Assembly (NCBI GenBank): GCA_037444445.1
Contig: JBBIMK010000048.1
Coordinates: 1-8,710 of the forward strand
Reading direction: 5' to 3'
Source: a bacterium
Lineage (GTDB): Bacteria; UBP7; UBA6624; JBBIMK01
DNA: 8,710 bases
Part shown: positions 375 through 8,710 of the stretch, in pieces
Position numbering within the stretch: position 1 is the first letter of the stretch
Layout of the letters: each line of letters opens with the position of its first letter
The notes under the pieces: generated by a model
The model's database searches: none
The model's input: the letters and a program-made list of their open reading frames with translations, nothing else
What the model was told of the DNA's origin: nothing
Translations under genes and position numbers: made by a program

Positions 375-605
375 TCAGTTTTCAGCGTGTTTGCGAAGAT
401 TTTCCCGTAGTCGCCGAATCATCTTATCCCGGATTGGCTTAAATACCTCGCCTAATTCTGCCAGTTCGCCAACAATCTTCATTTTCTTGGCGACTGGAAG
501 CCGTGCCATCCGAATTCGCCATCGCCTTTTCTGTTCAAAAATTTCCTGGAGAAGGTCTCCCTTAGAAATCGGGGAATTCCGCTTTGAATTTTTTCCAGAG
601 TCCAT
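375..605 (-). CDS. Small (76 aa), very basic, predicted-helical protein of unknown function; second gene of the insert
   Basis: The ATG at 605 is preceded on the minus strand by AAGGAGGTG, a near-perfect SD about 10-12 nt upstream. That SD lies inside the 3' end of the upstream gene. The ORF overlaps the upstream gene by 44 nt in another frame. It is K/R-rich and its C-terminus is RRLRENLRKHAEN. I recognise no family by eye. Confidence 0.55.
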   Translation of the reverse strand: MDSGKNSKRNSPISKGDLLQEIFEQKRRWRIRMARLPVAKKMKIVGELAELGEVFKPIRDKMIRRLRENLRKHAEN

Positions 606-1089
606 GCCGCACCAACACCTCCTTCAATCTCTTGACCTGGATAGGAATCTGTTGGTTAAAGAACTTCTCTATGCGAGCCCAGTCCATACGCCTGCCGCAT
701 TCTACGGACATGGCTATCAAATACTCCGGGGAAATAACCCTGCATGGAACATCGTTATATTTATCCTCCAGAGCATTTTCTATGGCTTCCTCTACCAGTT
801 CGGTGCCGGCGGGAATGAAATCTACCAAAACATCTTCCATCAGCGCCCTCCAGCCCTGCATTTTATAGCCCCGAAGCCGGAGATACCGATAAACTGGTGC
901 CGGGTCTATCAACCCGTCGGGACCCTGTTTATAATGTGTGAAGATGTCCACATCTTTTGTGTAAAACGGTTCGATGTAAAACATGGCCCCGATAGAGCCC
1001 CCGATGGCATATTCTCCAATAATTCCCTCTCTTTTCATATCGTTAATGACCGAGAGAATTAGCCCCAGTTTTTCAAAAATATTCTTCAT
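562..1089 (-). CDS. Minimal nucleotidyltransferase-fold protein (Pol-beta-like NTase superfamily; DUF6036/AbiEii-like by eye), 175 aa
   Basis: Residues 30-48, IGGS-x13-DVD (AIGGSIGAMFYIEPFYTKDVDIF), fit the G[GS]-x9-13-D-x-[DE] NTase signature. A later VLVDFIP strand could supply the third carboxylate. The motif RVISPEYLIAMSVECGRRMDWARIE resembles the LIAMKL.AGR.KD..DI motif common in small stand-alone NTases. Family assignment is from memory and not searched. Confidence 0.7.
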   Translation of the reverse strand: MKNIFEKLGLILSVINDMKREGIIGEYAIGGSIGAMFYIEPFYTKDVDIFTHYKQGPDGLIDPAPVYRYLRLRGYKMQGWRALMEDVLVDFIPAGTELVEEAIENALEDKYNDVPCRVISPEYLIAMSVECGRRMDWARIEKFFNQQIPIQVKRLKEVLVRHGLWKKFKAEFPDF

Positions 1090-1268: not shown

Positions 1269-1916
1269 TTATCGGGTGGGGGTTAAGGAGCCGAGGGCTT
1301 CTTTGAGCAGGCGAACGGCACCCGCGGGGTGAGGCGAAGCCAGCACGCCAGAAATCACCGCCACCGCATCCACACCCGTCTCCCATACGATTTTCACATT
1401 CCTCGGCGTGATGCCGCCAATGGCCACCACCGGGATTTTCAACACCTGTTTCGCAGACCGGAGGATGGAGAGGGAAATGACCGGCGCTTTCGGCTTGGTG
1501 GGGCTTTTGAAGCAGGCACCGAAAGCCACATAGTCGGCCCCTGCTTCCTCCATTTTTTTCGCCAGTTCTAAATTGCCGTGGCTGGAAACCCCGATGATGG
1601 CTTTATCCCCTAAGGCTTTTCGCAAAATCTCTATGGATGCATCCTCACTGCCCACATGAACGCCGTCGGCGCCTACTTCTTCCGCCAGCGTGGCATAGTT
1701 ATTGATGATGAAAGGAATTCCGTAATGGAGAGTCATCTCCCGCAATCGGCGAGCGACACGAACCCGCTCTTCATACCGCTCTGTCTCATCCCGATATTGA
1801 AAAACATCTACACCCGCCTTGAAGCACTCCTCCAGAATGCTAAAAAAGTGGGCTTTCCCGATATACCGCGCATCCGATACCAGATATAACCCTTTGATAG
1901 GAACCTTTCCTTCCAT
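1269..1916 (-). CDS. thiE: Thiamine-phosphate synthase (215 aa)
   Basis: Motifs typical of the ThiE TIM barrel are visible by eye: GLYLVSD, VFQYRDE, FIINN, GADGVHVGSED, IIGVSSH, GADYVAFGACFKSPTKP, PVVAIGGI, GVDAVAVISGV. I place the start at ATG 1916 (MEGKVPIKGLY...), with GGTGAG 4 nt upstream. The ORF-track extension to 2105 adds 63 codons that overlap the MFS gene's 3' end and is probably not translated. Confidence 0.9.
   Translation of the reverse strand: MEGKVPIKGLYLVSDARYIGKAHFFSILEECFKAGVDVFQYRDETERYEERVRVARRLREMTLHYGIPFIINNYATLAEEVGADGVHVGSEDASIEILRKALGDKAIIGVSSHGNLELAKKMEEAGADYVAFGACFKSPTKPKAPVISLSILRSAKQVLKIPVVAIGGITPRNVKIVWETGVDAVAVISGVLASPHPAGAVRLLKEALGSLTPTR
1270..1461. repeat. 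Direct repeat copy B (partner at 61..252), forming the 3' end of the intact thiE
   Basis: See copy A. The repeat edge at 1270 falls inside the thiE TAA stop (1269-1271). The last base of the stop codon is supplied by insert sequence. Confidence 0.95.
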
Positions 1917-1996
1917 CCCGCTCACCAACCCTATAGTATACAGAATATAGAAGACAGAATACAGGGGAAGGCAAAAGGGAATCCACTCACCATTTT

Positions 1997-3196
1997 CTAT
2001 TGGCCATCGGATGGACGCTCCGGCACCTTCAGAGGTAAAAGGGTGAGGAAAGCGAGAACCCCAAACAGAAACGTTAGGAGGAAGGGAGCCTGGCTTCCGA
2101 GCCACATTTTGAAGACCGTTCCTATCGCAGGACCCAGGAAGGATAGAAGCCCTGTGAGAGTGAGAAAGATGCCCACCACTCGTCCACGATGCGACCTCAT
2201 TGTCAGGTCGGAAAGTAGCACTCCGTGCATGCTCCAGATGAAAAGATTGAAAATGAAGGAAGCGATAAATAAGGCAGTGGCAACAAGGCTATCACCCGCA
2301 AAAGCCCAGAACCCTAAAAGGGCTGGATAAATCACCAGAGAAAGTTGCAGGAGTGAGCGGGCTTTCCATCTCTGTATCCACGGAAGGGCCAGAAGATTCA
2401 CCACCCCTGCAATCAGCCATCCACCAGCAAAAAACCGGTTGATTTCTCCCTCGCTCTTTGTCAGTTCATCCTTAAAGTGAAGGCTGATAAAGGGTCCATT
2501 GACGGTGAGAGAAAGCATAAAAAATATCAGGATAGAAGTCAGGAGAAATAAAAGAAGGGCTTTCTGACGGAATATGGATAGGAATACATCCCGAAAGGAT
2601 TCCGCAGGTTCACCAGAAGCTGTGTTTTCTGCCGGGGCGCCGGGAGAGGATAGCTCCACGAGAAGCCACTGACGGAAGATAGCCACAACGAGGGCTACCA
2701 CGGCAGTGATACCCATAAGCCAACGAATGCCGATTTCTTCCACAAAAACTGCACCCAGGTAAGACCCCACTCCCAGCCCCAGGGAAGCAAAGGCGTTCAG
2801 ATAGGTAAAAATCCTTTCGCGATTCTCAGAAGATTCTGCCATCAACGCCGTAAAAGCAGGACCCTGCAAAGAACCGGCAATATTTCCCCAGCAGAAGAAA
2901 AATGCTGCCATCCTCCAGTCGGGAATGAGCGCCATCAACCCGTAGATAACAGGATAAGCAAAAGTGGGAAGGACAATCATCCTCGCTCGCCCGAAGGTGT
3001 CTGTGAGAATTCCCCCGAGAAAACTGGTAACATAGAAAGCGAGGAAGAAAAAGGAGTAAGCCACGCCCACTTCATAATCGCTTGCTCCCAGTTCCTTCAG
3101 ATAAATAGGGAATACATTGAGCCAGGTAAAAGTTGCCACCAGCAAGAAAAATAAAGTAGCCGAAAGGACAAGTATATTCCGATGAACTTGCACCAT
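1997..3196 (-). CDS. Major facilitator superfamily transporter (399 aa), substrate unknown
   Basis: About 12 hydrophobic segments are visible. An MFS motif-A-like GGILTDTFGRARM follows the second segment. I place the start at ATG 3196 (MVQVHRNILVL...). The 20 extra codons in the ORF track run through the promoter-like region. Confidence 0.85.
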   Translation of the reverse strand: MVQVHRNILVLSATLFFLLVATFTWLNVFPIYLKELGASDYEVGVAYSFFFLAFYVTSFLGGILTDTFGRARMIVLPTFAYPVIYGLMALIPDWRMAAFFFCWGNIAGSLQGPAFTALMAESSENRERIFTYLNAFASLGLGVGSYLGAVFVEEIGIRWLMGITAVVALVVAIFRQWLLVELSSPGAPAENTASGEPAESFRDVFLSIFRQKALLLFLLTSILIFFMLSLTVNGPFISLHFKDELTKSEGEINRFFAGGWLIAGVVNLLALPWIQRWKARSLLQLSLVIYPALLGFWAFAGDSLVATALFIASFIFNLFIWSMHGVLLSDLTMRSHRGRVVGIFLTLTGLLSFLGPAIGTVFKMWLGSQAPFLLTFLFGVLAFLTLLPLKVPERPSDGQ

Positions 3197-3341: not shown

Positions 3342-4175
3342 ATGGTAAAGAGAAAGCGATTGACTCGCAGGGAGTTTTTGGTAGGGGTTGGGCTTGCCGC
3401 AGGAGCGGTTTATTCTACTGCGATAGAGCCTTATCTGCCTCGGTTGGAACGCATTCGTGTTTCCATCCCTAACCTGCCACAGGAGTTTCATGGGTTTCAG
3501 ATTCTCCAGTTTACGGATATTCACCGGGGACCTTATGTAAGTGAGGAAAAAATCATTCACGGGTTTGAGTTGGTCAAGGGTGAGAACCCTGCTCTTTTGG
3601 TGTTAACAGGTGATTATGTCACTTTCTATGCAAAAAATGCCGATTTCGTAGCAAAGGAAATCCGTCAGCGTTTCCATCCGCCCTTTGGGATTTTTGCCGT
3701 CTACGGGAATCACGAATACTGGAGCGATGTGAAGACTGTGACGACGGCTTTTCAGAAATATGACCTTCCAATTCTGGTGAATGAGCATCGTAGAATACAA
3801 AAGGATGGGGCGGAGATATATCTGCTGGGTGTAGATGATGTGTGGGAAGGAAAGCCTTCTGTGGAAAAAGCCTGTGAGGGTGTTCCATCGGATGCCGTGA
3901 AAATCCTCTTATGCCACGAGCCCGATTATGCGGATATTGCCAGAGAATATAGCATCGTCCTTCAACTCTCCGGGCATTCACACGGCGGGCAAATCCGAGT
4001 TCCCTTCACAAAAATTGCTTACTATCCATATCTGGCTCGGAAATATCCGGTTGGCTTGCAGAGAGTGGAGAATAGCCAGATGTGGGTTTATACCTCCCGT
4101 GGGATGGGGAACGGGTTGCCTGTTCGTTTCGCCTGCCCTCCTGAAATTACTGTGATTACTCTGAGTTCAGTTTAG
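3342..4175 (+). CDS. Tat-signal metallophosphoesterase, calcineurin-like (YkuE/YaeI-like), 277 aa
   Basis: All metallophosphoesterase motifs are present: FTDIHRG (DxH), LTGDYV (GD), YGNHEY (GNHE), LLCHEPD (H) and GHSHGGQ (GHxH). The N-terminus MVKRKRLTRREFLVGVGLAAGAV carries a twin-arginine motif. A GGGAGGAG SD lies about 13 nt upstream of ATG 3342, and a TAAAAT -10-like hexamer is at 3304-3309. Confidence 0.85.
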   Translation: MVKRKRLTRREFLVGVGLAAGAVYSTAIEPYLPRLERIRVSIPNLPQEFHGFQILQFTDIHRGPYVSEEKIIHGFELVKGENPALLVLTGDYVTFYAKNADFVAKEIRQRFHPPFGIFAVYGNHEYWSDVKTVTTAFQKYDLPILVNEHRRIQKDGAEIYLLGVDDVWEGKPSVEKACEGVPSDAVKILLCHEPDYADIAREYSIVLQLSGHSHGGQIRVPFTKIAYYPYLARKYPVGLQRVENSQMWVYTSRGMGNGLPVRFACPPEITVITLSSV

Positions 4176-5321
4176 AAGCCTTTCGGCGAGGAAGGCACCT
4201 TCCACCATACGACAGAGTTTTTCATAAGCCACCTCCCAGGTTCGTGTGCGTAATCCACAATCGGTGCACACGAGAATCTTTTCCGGGTCGCCGAGGATAG
4301 AAACGGCATACAAAATCCGATCCCGCACTAACTCTGCAGGCTCTAAAAAATCGGTGTGTATATCAATCACTCCCAGCCCGATTCTGGCTTTCACCTGATG
4401 CTCCCGGAAAAGTTTTAGAATCGTATATCCGGGGCGCTGGGCTTCCTTCGTCCCGTGCTCTATGCTGTCGTAATTAGCAAAGCCTATGGCATAAGCGTAG
4501 GGGCCTCCGTTTTCCACCTGCCCGATGTGGGGGAAAAGAAGCCGATAATCGCTGAAGCAGATGTGGACGGTGAATCGGGTATGATGGTTCAGCCCAACCG
4601 TGGATTGATGGAATGCCTCCAGAAACCAGGGAACTTCCTCAGGACGGGTAGTGACTGCTGGCTCGTCTATTTGTATCCATTTTGCTCCTGCCTCTACCAG
4701 CGCCTTCAGGTTCGGGCGAATGACCTCTCTCGCCATGGCGGTTAAAAAAAGCCTCCTGGCTTCCTTTTGCCCCTGTACATCCCAGGGCAAAACCTCTCTG
4801 GAAAAATACTCATCATAAGACCAGTCCACGAGAGTATAGGCACCAGTGATAGGAATTTTCACCGGCTTACTTGCCCACTGAATGATTTCCAGAAACTCTT
4901 TCAGATGATAAGGCCGGGTAAGCTCAGGATAGCTCCGACAAACTCCTTTTCGGTAGTATTTATGCTCAAAGGAACGCACATACCCGGTGAGTTCCATGCC
5001 CTGGATGTGACGAATGGGATATTCATACATTTCCGTGCGGAACTGCTCACCATCATAAACCAGGTCCAGCCCGGCCTTTTCCAGGAGCCGAACAGCAAAT
5101 CTGGATGACCAGCGAATCACTTCTTGCTTCTGTTCCGCATTCAGCGGTGATTTTTGAGCGGTTTTCAGGAGGTCCAGTAAAGGTTCTGCTGAGAGGCTCA
5201 ATTGATTTGCCCAGTGGAGAGCATCCTCGTAGTCTTGAGGAGAAAGCAGGCGGCCCGCTACCACTTTTACCCGCCAGTTGGGCTTTGCTAAAGAGCCGAT
5301 TTCATGCTTCAGAAATTTCAA
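4167..5321 (-). CDS. metE: Cobalamin-independent methionine synthase, catalytic (C-terminal-barrel-like, zinc-binding) subunit, 384 aa
   Basis: MetE C-domain motifs are visible by eye: DGEQFRTEMYEY (cf. GE.ER.DMVEYF), IQIDEPAV, VHICFSDY (HxC zinc ligands), GLGVIDIHTD (cf. GPGVYDIHSP) and CTDCGLRTR (cf. NPDCGLKTR). The start is TTG at 5321 and overlaps the upstream stop as TTGA. Confidence 0.85.
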   Translation of the reverse strand: MKFLKHEIGSLAKPNWRVKVVAGRLLSPQDYEDALHWANQLSLSAEPLLDLLKTAQKSPLNAEQKQEVIRWSSRFAVRLLEKAGLDLVYDGEQFRTEMYEYPIRHIQGMELTGYVRSFEHKYYRKGVCRSYPELTRPYHLKEFLEIIQWASKPVKIPITGAYTLVDWSYDEYFSREVLPWDVQGQKEARRLFLTAMAREVIRPNLKALVEAGAKWIQIDEPAVTTRPEEVPWFLEAFHQSTVGLNHHTRFTVHICFSDYRLLFPHIGQVENGGPYAYAIGFANYDSIEHGTKEAQRPGYTILKLFREHQVKARIGLGVIDIHTDFLEPAELVRDRILYAVSILGDPEKILVCTDCGLRTRTWEVAYEKLCRMVEGAFLAERLLN

Positions 5322-6280
5322 AACTTCTCTTTCACCTCTTTCAAAATTTGAACCTTTTTTAAGAAAACATCGTGAGGAAGAAACTGCGGGTCACCATTCA
5401 CCGAAAGGGTCAATTCTGTTGGCTTCCAGTGGCTGATTAGTTTCGTTAGATAACCCGTGAGCCAGTCCAATCTTTCCACCCGTGTGGAGTGAACATCCAG
5501 AATGCCCAGAAGCAGACGCATCTTTCCATTGTAAGGAATGCAGGATATTTCATCGGATGTCTGGTGGCAGGCATCCAGCCCCAGACCAAAGACTGGAAAT
5601 TCCAGGAGCCGGGGAAGCCAGGAGAGAATGGGGGTGAAGTAAGTGTGGAGGATGATGGGCAGAGATGTGGTTTGAGCCATCTCCTGGAAGCCCTTCTGTA
5701 AAGATTTCAAGAGGATAGAATTCGCTGCCACATTGCCTAAAAATGGCTCCTGAAATTGAATCAGCACGCAATTCTGTAATGAAGTGAGAGCCTGTAAAAT
5801 TTCACCCAGTAGATAGGAGCATTCAGAAATGAGAAAATCTAAAGGATGGTGAGATTCATCTTGAATGGAGGAAGCAAAGTAAAAAGGAGAAGGGAAAATC
5901 ACTTTGTAAGGCTCGGTAACAGGAACCTCCACATAGGAGCGAATCCATTGATTCAGGGAATTCCGTTTCAGGGCGAGGGAGCCCGTGCGAACAGGAGCCC
6001 GGTAAAAGGTATTGGTTCGGGGAAACCGAACGAGGGGTCCTGCCGTGAGATTTGCCACGATTTCCGTGAATGGACGAAAATAATCCAGCCAGTTTAACAT
6101 CGGTGAAGTCAGAGGGCTGAAATGTAATTCTTTTTGCAGGGCAAGATAAGATTGGAAGAGTTCGGCTTCTGCCTGTAAAGGGACCGAAATGGCACAGCGC
6201 CCCCGTTCATATTCCTGCCAGGCTTTTGCCAGGACAGTTGAGTGAGGAAAAATCCCGTGGAGGCTGATGGATAGGTTCAT
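5318..6280 (-). CDS. MetE N-terminal-barrel-like protein (non-catalytic paralogue lacking the HxC...C zinc ligands), 320 aa
   Basis: I aligned it by eye to the E. coli MetE N-domain recalled from memory: GIFPHS/GFPRVG, RTNTFYRAPV/NTNYHYMVPE, IQFQEPFL/VQIDEPAL, ILHTYFTPI/LLTTYFEGV, GILDVHSTRVERL/GLINGRNVWRADL. There is no Cys at the position of the catalytic CGL motif (SVNGDPQF). It has an ATGA overlap with the upstream gene and a TTGA overlap with the downstream gene. Confidence 0.6.
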   Translation of the reverse strand: MNLSISLHGIFPHSTVLAKAWQEYERGRCAISVPLQAEAELFQSYLALQKELHFSPLTSPMLNWLDYFRPFTEIVANLTAGPLVRFPRTNTFYRAPVRTGSLALKRNSLNQWIRSYVEVPVTEPYKVIFPSPFYFASSIQDESHHPLDFLISECSYLLGEILQALTSLQNCVLIQFQEPFLGNVAANSILLKSLQKGFQEMAQTTSLPIILHTYFTPILSWLPRLLEFPVFGLGLDACHQTSDEISCIPYNGKMRLLLGILDVHSTRVERLDWLTGYLTKLISHWKPTELTLSVNGDPQFLPHDVFLKKVQILKEVKEKF

Positions 6281-7296
6281 GGCTGATTTGAAAAATAAGG
6301 ATGGTGCCTTGCCACGACCAGAAGCCTGCGGGTCAATTCGGCTGAAATGCCCAGATTATAAGTCATCACATGTTCTACATTCAGCCCAATGGGGATGGAA
6401 ATACCTGTGGAATAGACCCAGTCCAGGATGCCCCGCAAAAGAGTTTCCGCATATTGAATAGAGCGTTCCTCAGTCAGAGCAGGGTTCTCCAGCAGGTAGT
6501 CAGCCGTGCCATCGGAAATTTCCACTCCAAGCCAGCGCATAAATTGAAGGTCCTTTTCCCTGGTTAAGGGAGCGAAACTGAGGAAAATTCGCCGGGGTGA
6601 GACCTTCTTCTGCTGACAGAGGCGGGAAAAATCCATCAGCAATCGGCACACAGAGGAGGGCTCAAACAGGATTTGGGAAGTAAAAAAGGACACCCCACCT
6701 TTCATCTTGCTGAGCAGGCGATACGGCTCGTCCCGGGCTGGGTCAGTGTGCCGGCGAGTGGGAATGGTGATTCCTCCTGTGATATGAGGGATATGGAAAT
6801 GTCTTAAAAGACGAGCACTCTCGGAAACTGAGGGCCCCGGATAGCGAATCCGGCTGGATTCTCCCCCCACGAATAGAAAAGAGTAAATGCTGAATTCCCG
6901 ATGAGTTCGCCAGAGCCACTTTTCCAAAGTCGGTCTGGGGGAACGGACAACCACCCGGTTCACGATGGTGTCAGGAGGAAGGCAATGGATTTTTCGGTAT
7001 GCTCTTCTTAAAACCCTCGCGTAAGTTCGGGGAGGAATTTTCGGTGTATACCGGGTAACCCGTGGCTCGTTTCGGGCTTCATTGAGAACCTCTGGTATGT
7101 TGAGAGCATTCAGCGGAAGGCGGTGAAGGGTGTTCGCCGCACTTCGGGCATGCTGATAGACTTTCTCCAATGTAAAGTGAAGAGGGGGTGGAATGATAGT
7201 AAAAATGGTGGCAACATTATCAGGCTTCTGAACAGCCTCACAAAATCTCTTAAAGGCTAATTCAGCCTCTTTCATCACCCGGATTTCTTTGACCAT
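6277..7296 (-). CDS. Divergent methylenetetrahydrofolate reductase (MTHFR/MetF)-like protein, 339 aa (or 332 aa if the start is ATG 7275)
   Basis: By-eye matches to MetF are FTIIPPP (cf. FEFFPP), LFVGGES (cf. ALRGD), GGVSFFTSQILFE (cf. GANRAITQFFFD), IFLSFAPLT (cf. IIPGILPV) and a C-terminal TYN (cf. FYTLN). It heads a translationally coupled operon with the two MetE-like genes. Confidence 0.6.
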   Translation of the reverse strand: MVKEIRVMKEAELAFKRFCEAVQKPDNVATIFTIIPPPLHFTLEKVYQHARSAANTLHRLPLNALNIPEVLNEARNEPRVTRYTPKIPPRTYARVLRRAYRKIHCLPPDTIVNRVVVRSPRPTLEKWLWRTHREFSIYSFLFVGGESSRIRYPGPSVSESARLLRHFHIPHITGGITIPTRRHTDPARDEPYRLLSKMKGGVSFFTSQILFEPSSVCRLLMDFSRLCQQKKVSPRRIFLSFAPLTREKDLQFMRWLGVEISDGTADYLLENPALTEERSIQYAETLLRGILDWVYSTGISIPIGLNVEHVMTYNLGISAELTRRLLVVARHHPYFSNQP

Positions 7297-7330: not shown

Positions 7331-7404
7331 CAACCGATGATGGTGGATTCTAACTACAGATGAAGTCCCGATGATTTCGGAGCAGTCTACCAATCCGCGG
7401 TGAT

Positions 7405-8502
7405 TTAGTAGAAGAAGTGGAGAACGGTCATGCCCTCCCACTTCTCCCCGGAGGGGGAATCCGTGTTGTTTCGCACCATCAGGAGGACCTCCGTGAAAGA
7501 AATTGGGAAGATGGCTGTGCCGAAACTCCAGCGGTGGCGGTCGGGTGTTGTGTTCAGCTCCGGTTCAAACCGGTCATACTGCAAAATCCAGTGCCAGCCC
7601 AGTTTCTGTAAATACCGCCATTCGGTGTGAGAAACGATGTCGTCATGGTTGGTTTGAACCCACTCGGAGATGAGTGAGACTTTGCCGGAATGGAGTCCAG
7701 CGAAACCCGCAAGCCAATTCCCCTTTTGCTGGCTTCCCGTGTTTTTGAAATAGGAAGCGCCCGCCATCCATTTTGGCTGAAAATGGGTGTAAGAGGCGGT
7801 GACCGCTTTCCCAATATTCTGGTCAAACTGCCCCGTCCCACCGTTGGTGACGCTGAGGCTGAATAAATGGTTCCGTGCCCCATAGCCTGCCTCCAGCCCC
7901 GTGTCCCGATAAAACTGCGTGAAAGGTGTGAATGGAGTGGGAGGAGCGTCCGAACCGCTCTCCACATAGCCCCGGGTGTAAGAGTTGTGGTCATCCCACC
8001 GAACACCAAAATTGGGCACAAATCGCCCCATTTTCACATAGGTGCCTTCCCCGAAAAGGTCCCGGATAATCGCCAGAGAATCAAAATTCCCAAACTGCCC
8101 TCGTGAGAACAGAAAGTCCATCTTCAAGGATTTTCCTTCCAGGTGGAAATTGGCATAGAGATTCCCCTGCATATCAAAGAAGGTATTCTTCACACCCTGA
8201 TAGCGTTTGGATTCGGCTACATAATACAGTAAGCGATGGTCTACGCCGAAGGAGATGTTCTCGTTGAGGTCAGGGGAGGCTTCTTCAAAAATTTTCTTCA
8301 AAGGCAGTTTGGATTGAGCGAACTCAAAACCGCGACCGGTTCGCATACCGCCACCTGTGGGATTGATATGACAGCCGGCACAGGACACGCCTCGCACCGA
8401 CGAAAATACAGGCAGGGCGGGGCTTTCTTTCGTCCACATCAGAAGGAGAGCCACCACCAGGCTCCCCACCCAAACTGCCTTTCTTCCCCTCAGAAATCTC
8501 AT
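7405..8502 (-). CDS. Outer-membrane beta-barrel protein with an N-terminal single CXXCH haem-binding motif (Cyc2-like fused cytochrome-porin candidate), 365 aa
   Basis: The signal peptide is MRFLRGRKAVWVGSLVVALLLMWTKESPA. CAGCH (nt 8368..8382) lies about 10 residues into the mature protein and is followed by INPTGGG. The remainder is rich in alternating aromatic/G/N/S/T strands (GLEAGYGARNHLFSLSVTNGG, AVTASYTHF, AGASYFKN, WHWILQYDRF) and ends in ...MTVLHFFY, a typical OMP C-terminal aromatic signature. The start at ATG 8502 is supported by an AAGGGGGGGG SD and the promoter at 8534..8542. Confidence 0.7.
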   Translation of the reverse strand: MRFLRGRKAVWVGSLVVALLLMWTKESPALPVFSSVRGVSCAGCHINPTGGGMRTGRGFEFAQSKLPLKKIFEEASPDLNENISFGVDHRLLYYVAESKRYQGVKNTFFDMQGNLYANFHLEGKSLKMDFLFSRGQFGNFDSLAIIRDLFGEGTYVKMGRFVPNFGVRWDDHNSYTRGYVESGSDAPPTPFTPFTQFYRDTGLEAGYGARNHLFSLSVTNGGTGQFDQNIGKAVTASYTHFQPKWMAGASYFKNTGSQQKGNWLAGFAGLHSGKVSLISEWVQTNHDDIVSHTEWRYLQKLGWHWILQYDRFEPELNTTPDRHRWSFGTAIFPISFTEVLLMVRNNTDSPSGEKWEGMTVLHFFY

Positions 8503-8533
8503 TTTTGAGCCCCCCCTTCTTTTTTCGCTTACA

Positions 8534-8542: not shown

Positions 8543-8669
8543 TCTTCAAACCTCAATCCCTTTTTAATCTGTTTTGCAAGGTCTTAAAAGGAAGAAGAAA
8601 ACCTGTCATCAAACGGGACGGCGTCCCGCCAGCATGCCGTGCGGAGCAAAGTAATGTCATTCTGAGCGA

Positions 8670-8705
8670 AGCGGAAGTCCCGATAAAAGCCATCGGGTTC
8701 CCGCT
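8670..8705. other. Nested imperfect hairpin at the window edge (intergenic structured element or repeat-like sequence)
   Basis: AGCGGAA (8670-8676) pairs with TTCC(C)GCT (8698-8705). An inner CCCGAT (8679-8684) pairs with ATCGGG (8692-8697) across a 7-nt loop. A second small hairpin, GGGAC-ggc-GTCCC, is at 8614-8626. Confidence 0.3.
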
Positions 8706-8710
8706 GCTTT

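Follow-up and report, generated by a model that had tools for sequence, protein, structure and literature searches.

No marker gene for microbial iron oxidation is in wider use than Cyc2, whose product is the simplest known electron route across the outer membrane. Proteins of this type include Acidithiobacillus ferrooxidans Cyc2, Mariprofundus Cyc2PV-1 and Leptospirillum Cyt572 and are grouped in clusters 1-3 (McAllister 2020; Keffer 2021). The present analysis concerns a gene of the 8,710-nucleotide (nt) contig JBBIMK010000048.1 (assembly GCA_037444445.1), which was analyzed over its whole length and is called the window below. The gene encodes a protein of 365 amino acids (aa) in which a haem c attachment motif precedes a porin-like sequence. 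All results are computational and come from sequence, profile, structure-prediction and gene-neighbourhood analyses. Together they indicate that the window protein is probably an outer-membrane single-haem electron conduit, built from a short haem c module fused to a 16-stranded barrel, and that it belongs to a remote sister family of Cyc2.

As defined by Keffer et al. 2021 (PMC8406198), a Cyc2 protein has a signal peptide, one CXXCH motif, a 16-strand porin and a length of at least 365 aa. Two further sequence motifs belong to this definition (PMC8406198): AXPXFAR[Q/K][T/Y] upstream of the haem motif, which is called unique to Cyc2 and was screened there as PXFAR[Q/K][T/Y], and PXL four residues downstream. 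Similarity is set by a BLASTP match of E≤1e-5 to a cluster representative in NCBI/IMG (PMC8406198). The length cut-off for Cyc2 in the FeGenie paper is 375 aa (PMC7005843), and most Cyc2 members have at least 400 aa.

Two other kinds of outer-membrane protein share features with the window protein. In porin-cytochrome complexes of the MtrAB/MtoAB/PioAB type, a separate multihaem (e.g. decahaem) cytochrome is threaded through a 26-strand barrel (PMC10654088). The barrel of these complexes holds haem in its lumen and so conducts electrons through the outer membrane, and the same logic may apply to the window protein, which nevertheless falls outside this type as one polypeptide with one haem motif and 16 predicted strands. 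No sequence relationship to the porin-cytochrome complexes was detected. The general 16-stranded diffusion porins and OprP/OprO resemble the window protein in fold, in a long loop at the L3 position and in an aromatic C-terminus, but have no haem module and share only 9-14% sequence identity with it.

Protein architecture and family conservation

The gene and the parts of its product, numbered by residues of the full-length protein, are located in the window as follows.

7405 to 8502, minus strand: coding sequence of the 365-aa fused haem c/porin protein, with the stop codon TAA at 7405-7407, from the list of open reading frames (ORFs) and the translation
8416 to 8502, minus strand: Sec-type signal peptide, residues 1-29, with n-region MRFLRGRK, h-region AVWVGSLVVALLLMW and c-region TKESPA
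8257 to 8415, minus strand: N-terminal haem module, residues 30-82, lying after the signal peptide and before barrel strand 1
8368 to 8382, minus strand: CAGCH haem c attachment motif, residues 41-45, encoded as TGT GCC GGC TGT CAT
8341 to 8367, minus strand: family signature INPTGGGMR, residues 46-54, directly after CAGCH and in the place of the Cyc2 PXL
7411 to 8256, minus strand: predicted 16-stranded porin-type beta-barrel, residues 83-364, from AlphaFold2 strands, Foldseek matches and barrel-only hhalign
7906 to 8019, minus strand: long loop that joins strands 5 and 6, residues 162-199, where porins have their constriction loop L3; it carries the conserved FVPNFGVRWDDH..R stretch
7417 to 7419, minus strand: His362 (CAC), a near-invariant and predicted lumen-facing residue of the last strand, candidate distal haem ligand by conservation and topology
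7408 to 7428, minus strand: C-terminal end of the last strand, TVLHFFY, with the kind of aromatic signal that the assembly machinery for outer-membrane proteins recognises

The signal peptide, modelled by AlphaFold2 as a helix at residues 5-22, is expected to be cleaved before L30 and has no lipobox Cys. The A-x-P at the cleavage site is kept across the family, with P31 present in 195 of 197 sequences (99%). CAGCH occupies mature residues 12-16, and its two Cys are the sole cysteines of the window protein; the motif pair is the only Cys in 110 of 205 family members. Family C-termini follow the pattern x-H-x-[FYW]-[FYL]. An earlier note, made from the letters of this DNA alone, had described a Sec signal peptide, a single CAGCH about 10 residues into the mature chain followed by INPTGGG, and an outer-membrane protein end LHFFY. 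All of these are found where it placed them, the last as ...TVLHFFY. Among the checks that the same note had proposed are the conservation of CXXCH in homologues and the number of barrel strands predicted by AlphaFold, and the results of both, given next, agree with its description.

Using a 67-sequence alignment, AlphaFold2 predicts 16 strands in residues 83-364 with a mean predicted local distance difference test score (pLDDT) of 88.6 and a predicted template modelling score (pTM) of 0.83. An earlier run with 8 sequences also gave 16 strands, at a pLDDT of 61.5. Within the haem module the pLDDT is 78-97 (10-residue block means, residues 31-80), and helices are modelled at residues 31-37 and 56-65. 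Foldseek comparison of the model with the PDB returns porins as the best matches. The best fits are 16-stranded (OmpF, Omp32, OmpU and PorB; E 1e-8 to 1e-9, template modelling score (TM) 0.55-0.60), although the top ranks by E-value mix these with 18-stranded OccK/BenF-type porins, which rank first at a TM of ~0.44. OprP (2o4v), the template reported for Cyc2 (PMC8406198), is matched at E 5.7e-8, and no structure of a Cyc2-type protein was found in the PDB copy searched. In the long loop at residues 162-199, a small hairpin is modelled at 179-190, and G166 (99.5%), D171 (87%) and R177 (96%) are conserved. From its position, this loop may fold inward in the fashion of a constriction loop.

The protein belongs to a large family. 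A word-indexed homologue search had given the impression of a tiny one, with only 7 relatives, which was overturned by an exhaustive profile search of 1.84 billion cluster representatives. The latter matched 2,580 clusters at 50% identity with E≤1e-3, 1,244 with E≤1e-10 and 366 with E≤1e-30, and nearly all matches are 340-420 aa long. Among 215 collected members, 199 have one CXXCH, six have two and 10 have none. Nine of the 10 members lacking the motif are profile hits to short sequences in which the match starts at or near the first residue, consistent with N-terminal truncation of these nine.

The haem module is the most conserved part of the family, whose signature reads A-x-P-[RY]-[FL]-A-x-R-x-G-x-x-CxxCH-[VI]-N-P-[TS]-G-G-G-[MK]-R. 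All of 205-206 relatives, at only 22-32% identity to the query, have C41, C44 and H45, and because of this invariance the CXXCH is judged to be functional rather than fortuitous. After the haem motif, N47 (92%), P48 (78%), G50 (100%), G51 (95%), G52 (87%) and R54 (99%) are conserved. Seven charged residues located in strands are more than 85% conserved as well, namely R90, E141, K157, E204, E280, E294 and R324.

In the six members with two CXXCH motifs, the second lies in an N-terminal extension. These dihaem variants (P0210, P0213, P0214, P0020, P0078 and P0138; 384-512 aa) carry the extra motif before the canonical CxxCH-x-N-P-x-G-G-G, as in ...RFAQNCAGCHAPGRVNKEAPGRRCTLSCQGCHVSPQGGGLRN... 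of P0213. Such variants would be expected if an electron wire had been lengthened.

The pattern CH[VIT]NPTGGG occurs in 548 GTDB species-representative genomes. Related loci across genomes were searched with a 16-sequence family alignment, and the carriers listed come from Nitrospirota, Ignavibacteria and other Bacteroidota, Zixibacteria, Krumholzibacteria, Eisenbacteria, Latescibacterota, Marinimicrobia, TA06, and Steroidobacteraceae and other Gammaproteobacteria. They are mostly uncultured lineages and not classical iron oxidisers. The closest carrier among the matches listed is a metagenome-assembled genome (MAG) of candidate division TA06 at 38% identity, and one carrier, Aliikangiella coralliicola, is cultured. 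Members are named only 'hypothetical' or 'Porin' in any source. There is no dedicated Pfam or NCBIfam model for the family; scans of the window protein with both collections gave no match, and scans of 67 members gave only marginal Porin_4, BBP2, Porin_O_P or LbtU matches or chance ones. When the protein and the family profile were each compared with PDB sequences, the only matches were at chance level and fell around the signal peptide and CXXCH, and a tblastn search against plasmids found no match. Exact matches to the window protein, translated from the ATG or from an alternative TTG, were looked for in public assemblies, and none was on record. NPTGGG and related motif strings retrieved nothing relevant from the searchable literature. 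The family is thus large, unnamed and apparently undescribed.

Relation to Cyc2

A Cyc2-like reference set was assembled by scanning JGI metagenomes for DNA encoding P-x-F-A-R-[QK]-[TY]-G-x-x-C-x-x-C-H. It comprises 81 full-length proteins of 396-528 aa (median 462), all of which carry the full upstream motif, having been retrieved by it. After the haem motif the set has P in 98% and L in 96% of sequences at the PXL positions and also carries G-x-x-F-K-x-x-G-Y. One member, L116c, is 64% identical to a protein of Sideroxyarcus emersonii (Gallionellaceae) and 60-62% identical to proteins of Gallionella MAGs, and this taxonomy, taken with the motif, would anchor the set in the Gallionellaceae Cyc2 group. 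The locus tag MIZ01_0163 was not found in the literature.

The window protein shares the overall design of Cyc2. It has the Sec signal, a single N-terminal CXXCH about 10 residues into the mature chain and, fused C-terminally, a predicted 16-stranded barrel with an aromatic end. Before the haem motif it keeps A-x-P-x-F-(A) with identical spacing to the first Cys, and G-x-x-[FY] follows about 10-15 residues after the haem motif. Neither Cyc2 nor the family of the window protein has a Pfam model.

It departs from the published definition on three points. The upstream sequence ALPVFSSVR-GVS-C preserves AXPXF and its spacing, but SSVR (A-x-R-x-G in the family consensus) replaces the AR[Q/K][T/Y] of Cyc2. 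Downstream of H45 the sequence is INPTGGGMR, with P at +3 followed by T-G instead of x-L, so that PXL is replaced across the family by [VI]-N-P-[TS]-G-G-G-[MK]-R with a 3-residue difference in length. In BLASTP, the match to P0312, a putative Cyc2 homologue of Sideroxyarcus emersonii (Gallionellaceae), spans 16 residues at 26.6 bits with a single-pair E of 0.001, and the best match among the 81 Cyc2-like sequences reaches 38.5 bits, is N-terminal only and has an E of 1.7e-5 in that 81-sequence database. A hidden Markov model (HMM) built from the 81 sequences scores the window protein at 26.4 bits, with its best domain on the N-terminal 41 residues, mostly signal peptide and haem motif. Similarity at the pairwise and HMM level therefore extends over no more than about 16-40 N-terminal residues. 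With 365 aa, the window protein is exactly at the length cut-off of Keffer et al. and below the 375 aa of the FeGenie paper. For the family as a whole the median is 376 aa, about 90 residues shorter than the 462 aa of the reference set, in agreement with the suggestion of the earlier note that this might be a compact or distinct clade.

Profile-profile comparison extends the relationship over the whole protein. Full-length hhalign against the Cyc2-like set gives a probability of 98.8% and an E of 4.5e-17 over 351 columns, and comparison of the heads alone gives 98.5% and 1.5e-15. When only the barrels are aligned, the probability is 94.3%, the E is 1e-7 and the score is 60 over 262 colinear columns. 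The corresponding control scores are 17.8 for a reversed profile and 14-28 for 13 trials in which the profile was shuffled in 12-column blocks, and generic beta-barrel periodicity therefore does not explain the match. In the head alignment, NPTGGG appears as a 3-residue insertion relative to Cyc2, and M/K-R-N-x-[FY]-G stands opposite P-x-L-N-x-F-G.

This colinear homology of head and barrel places the family, as judged from sequence profiles, as a distinct remote sister within a wider Cyc2-type cytochrome-porin superfamily and outside Cyc2 as currently delimited. The description of the protein as Cyc2-like in the earlier note thus holds for its architecture and for the remote homology of both parts, but does not extend to membership in Cyc2 as published. 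The published Cyc2 criteria exclude the family, while some members may already score as Cyc2 in pipelines of the FeGenie type.

The same metagenome scan gave a side observation on Cyc2-like proteins. Those with the full published motif are very common in soil and peat metagenomes, with at least 120 JGI loci (L090-L209). A dominant motif-bearing type combines IPAFARKYGLPCSACHEAWPMLNNFGQTFKDNGYQ with the C-terminus ...GFDFDF and is distinct from that of Gallionellaceae.

Haem ligation, neighbouring carriers and function

A His occupies position 362 in 203 of 206 members (98.5%) and is the sole conserved His or Met besides H45. This residue, four residues from the C-terminus, has no equivalent in the Cyc2-like reference set. 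From strand alternation, Y365, F363 and L361 of the last strand should face the lipid, and F364 and H362 should face the lumen. The topology suggests that both barrel termini are periplasmic and that strand 1 pairs with strand 16. Because it is near-invariant and would face the lumen near the periplasmic end of the barrel, H362 appears well placed as a ligand, and it could be the sixth ligand of a haem held at that end of the lumen. Met53 of GGGMR was also considered as the distal ligand and is ruled out, since it is only 54% conserved, with K in 17% and L in 14% of members at this position. The c-type haems with bis-His ligation usually have lower potentials than His/Met haems. If H45 and H362 were the two ligands, a lower potential could be predicted and possibly, as a speculation, a substrate or direction unlike that of Cyc2. 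The potential of Cyc2PV-1 has been measured at +208 mV (PMC8406198).

Gene neighbourhoods were compared by calling ORFs in 79 loci with a family member and clustering the neighbours. The most frequent neighbour is a c-type cytochrome, and 23 of the 79 loci have a directly adjacent CXXCH protein on the same strand. The background among ORFs more than two genes away is 10 of 587 (1.7%), which corresponds to a 17-fold enrichment of adjacent cytochromes. A candidate carrier gene, for a cytochrome c or a cupredoxin, lies within two genes on the same strand in 29 of the 79 loci. The type of partner varies with lineage. In Bacteroidota and Ignavibacteria it is a monohaem protein of 120-150 aa encoded directly downstream and matching PSCyt1 (PF07635, 30 bits), and in Gammaproteobacteria it is a lipoprotein encoded directly upstream with one or two PSCyt1-type domains and an Ig-like Big_5 domain. 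One or two cupredoxins (plastocyanin/azurin, PF00127) are encoded directly downstream in two Nitrospirota loci and one Zixibacteria locus. The neighbouring partner of the family is a PSCyt1-type cytochrome rather than the Cyc1 of Cyc2.

An operon-like row of genes surrounds a distant homologue, P0007 (27% identity; L006 6680-15582, GCA_028289325.1, contig JANQQN010000324.1). Its gene order is TatA, TatC, a PSCyt1-like protein (201 aa), the barrel cytochrome, a dihaem cytochrome c, a Rieske protein, cytochrome b and an 8-haem cytochrome. Cytochrome b is encoded as N- and C-terminal parts, and the multihaem cytochrome has 758 aa with a FixO-like stretch. This row is a candidate for a complete electron path from the outer membrane to the bc complex. 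The locus of another homologue, P0004 (L003), has an 8-haem cytochrome gene on the opposite strand, ~850 bp upstream of P0004. The enrichment of carrier genes, the P0007 row and the dihaem variants fit a role in electron transfer. As a separate observation, a gene for a YceI-like periplasmic protein (PF04264) recurs at five loci of different phyla (L020, L054, L056, L070 and L082), no more than about three genes away from the family member. Genes for polyketide synthase, threonine synthase, pyruvate kinase and others, which neighbour the family member in Ignavibacteria and Bacteroidota, were considered as functional partners and set aside as lineage-specific synteny.

In the mechanism proposed here, the protein would be exported by Sec, and haem would then be attached covalently in the periplasm to C41 and C44 of the haem-bearing part (mature residues 1-53), with H45 as the proximal ligand. 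The barrel would be inserted into the outer membrane by means of its aromatic C-terminal signal, and the haem module would lodge in the lumen at its periplasmic end. In this position the haem could receive its sixth ligand from the last strand, through the lumen-facing His362, and the conserved charged strand residues may keep the module in place. A small dissolved redox species would enter the barrel from outside and exchange one electron with the haem. For Cyc2 it has been argued that a haem enclosed in a small pore can react with dissolved species only (PMC8406198; PMC9040806). The haem would in turn exchange the electron with a soluble or lipid-anchored periplasmic carrier, such as the PSCyt1-type monohaem cytochrome c or the cupredoxin encoded adjacently in relatives. 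Fe(II), Mn(II), Fe(III) chelates or others are candidate substrates, and the sequence fixes neither the substrate nor the direction of the electron.

The direction divides two more specific accounts of the protein, each of which is unlikely taken alone. Under the first, the family would function as Cyc2 does, as an outer-membrane Fe(II) oxidase that passes an electron from dissolved Fe2+ in the pore inward to periplasmic carriers and then to an oxidase or bc complex. The common architecture and the remote homology of head and barrel argue for this account, many carriers come from groundwater and sediment lineages, and the downstream cupredoxins of Nitrospirota and Zixibacteria, together with the dihaem cytochrome c, Rieske and cytochrome b genes at P0007, recall the Acidithiobacillus operons cyc2-cyc1-cup-cox-rus and pet (PMC10654088). 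It is nevertheless doubtful in view of the three departures from the published definition, the absence of any known iron oxidiser among the 80 carriers listed, and the near-invariant second His, which suggests bis-His ligation and with it, usually, a potential lower than that of His/Met haems; the close relatives of the window protein also do not have such an operon context. Under the second account, to which slightly less credence is given, a low-potential bis-His haem would pass respiratory electrons outward to soluble acceptors such as Fe(III) chelates, humics or flavins. The conserved His362 as a candidate second axial ligand speaks for an outward conduit, as do the dihaem variants, the 8-haem cytochrome gene near P0004 and the frequency of the family in Ignavibacteria, Bacteroidota, Zixibacteria, Krumholzibacteria and other sediment lineages rich in anaerobes. 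The cupredoxin neighbours and the Rieske/cytochrome b context, however, are more in keeping with chains that are high-potential, inward or aerobic, linkage to any multihaem partner is inconsistent, and the bis-His ligation on which this account depends is itself predicted from conservation and topology.

Several observations weigh against an electron conduit in either direction. For 50 of the 79 loci there is no carrier gene nearby and the neighbours are housekeeping genes only. No adjacent cytochrome or cupredoxin gene was found for the window protein or for its close relatives P0001-P0004 (57-94% identity), and the neighbours within this clade are housekeeping genes or differ from contig to contig. 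In Ignavibacteria and Bacteroidota, many of the neighbouring genes reflect ordinary synteny that is conserved. The 8.7-kb window shows no genes for cytochrome c maturation, and the one cultured carrier, A. coralliicola, is not known to respire metals. Strand alternation and topology, not a measured distance, are the basis for placing haem in the barrel and for the H45-H362 geometry. More generally, we infer the binding of haem, the outer-membrane location, the position of haem inside the barrel, the ligand role of His362 and the conduit function itself. These points leave room for a protein that is mainly a solute porin or uptake channel, in which haem would be structural, would act as a redox or gas sensor gating the pore, or would serve a peroxidase-type detoxifier. 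Such a protein would have the fold of general diffusion porins, as predicted here, could sit among housekeeping genes as the window gene does, and would agree with the marginal Porin_4, BBP2, Porin_O_P and LbtU siderophore porin matches of a few members. It is improbable given that the 17-fold enrichment of adjacent c-type cytochrome genes and the dihaem variants point to electron transfer, that the conserved charged strand residues and the confidently packed N-terminal module suggest an occupied lumen, and that the only characterised homologues, the Cyc2 proteins, are redox enzymes. An ordinary porin with a fortuitous CXXCH would share the porin fold and nothing else; this is refuted by the motif being invariant in about 205 relatives, at a constant place about 10 residues past the cleavage site and with conserved motifs on both sides.

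The preferred reading therefore stays that of a single-haem electron conduit. A stronger version, which falls a little short of probable, is that the proteins form a second and unrecognised fused cytochrome-porin family as widespread as Cyc2 but kept out of Cyc2 surveys by the motif and length filters applied there, with a His45/His362 haem in the barrel and likely a different potential, substrate or direction. If this is true, many uncultured Nitrospirota, Ignavibacteria, Zixibacteria, Krumholzibacteria, Eisenbacteria and TA06 would have a one-protein route of extracellular electron exchange that current marker-gene sets either do not count or wrongly count as iron oxidation. Should the family be an electron conduit, a common gene is missed or misassigned when metal cycling in groundwater and sediment communities is surveyed. 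The conserved second His also offers a handle on how a single haem may be held inside a porin.

Gene start, flanking genes and other features of the window

The ATG at 8502 on the minus strand is taken as the start codon, and the same ATG is called in the 94%-identical homologue P0001. A longer version starting from TTG at 8556 is unlikely because this codon lies upstream of the -10 box. Two candidate signals precede the ATG.

8510 to 8519, minus strand: ribosome-binding site GAAGGGGGGG, 7 nt upstream of the ATG and conserved in L088
8534 to 8542, minus strand: extended -10 promoter-like element TGATATAAT, ~31 nt upstream of the ATG, identified by its match to the consensus only

The earlier note had given the gene an extended -10 promoter of its own and had described it as monocistronic. 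The extended -10 is present as a sequence match, and a -10-like element (TAAAAT or TACAAT) is aligned at the equivalent position upstream of four relatives; a two-hexamer promoter scan did not pick up TGATATAAT. Monocistronic transcription was not established, as there is no convincing terminator in the 108-nt gap to the next gene. Rfam and tRNA scans found no riboswitch or other RNA in the flanking gaps.

The same note was correct that no periplasmic cytochrome partner is visible in the window, which, however, reaches only 208 nt beyond the start codon on the upstream side. Four contigs, the window and those of L088, L089 and L001, end 140-370 nt upstream of the gene. The last 70 nt of the window (8640-8710; ...GTCATTCTGAGCGAAGCGGAAGTCCCGAT...) partly repeat positions 7347-7372, with 73% identity over 26 nt. 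The repeated sequence may be a dispersed element at which assemblies break and which conceals the region upstream of the gene.

The cytochrome-porin gene is followed directly by three genes on the minus strand (4167-7296) whose stop and start codons overlap. Of their products, the first (339 aa) matches the methylenetetrahydrofolate-reductase part of PRK08645 only faintly, the second (320 aa) resembles the Meth_synt_1 N-terminal domain and the third (384 aa) is a Meth_synt_2 catalytic domain. By these matches the three genes together resemble a cobalamin-independent methionine-synthase-like system in split form. The 108-nt gap before them contains a promoter-like site, TTTACC-18-TATAAT (7329-7300). 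A functional link between the cytochrome-porin gene and these methyltransferase-like genes was considered and rejected, because the synteny is found only in the 94% relative P0001, where the first downstream gene is kept.

At the other end of the window, a 192-nt direct repeat with 98% identity (61-252 and 1270-1461) duplicates the 3' end of a gene for a thiE-like thiamine-phosphate synthase (1269-2105, minus strand). The segment of about 1 kb between the two copies holds a weak DUF2204 nucleotidyltransferase-like ORF (562-1089, minus strand) and an overlapping ORF of 76 aa (375-605, minus strand). The repeat-bracketed segment looks like an inserted two-gene cassette with target duplication, possibly a toxin-antitoxin pair.

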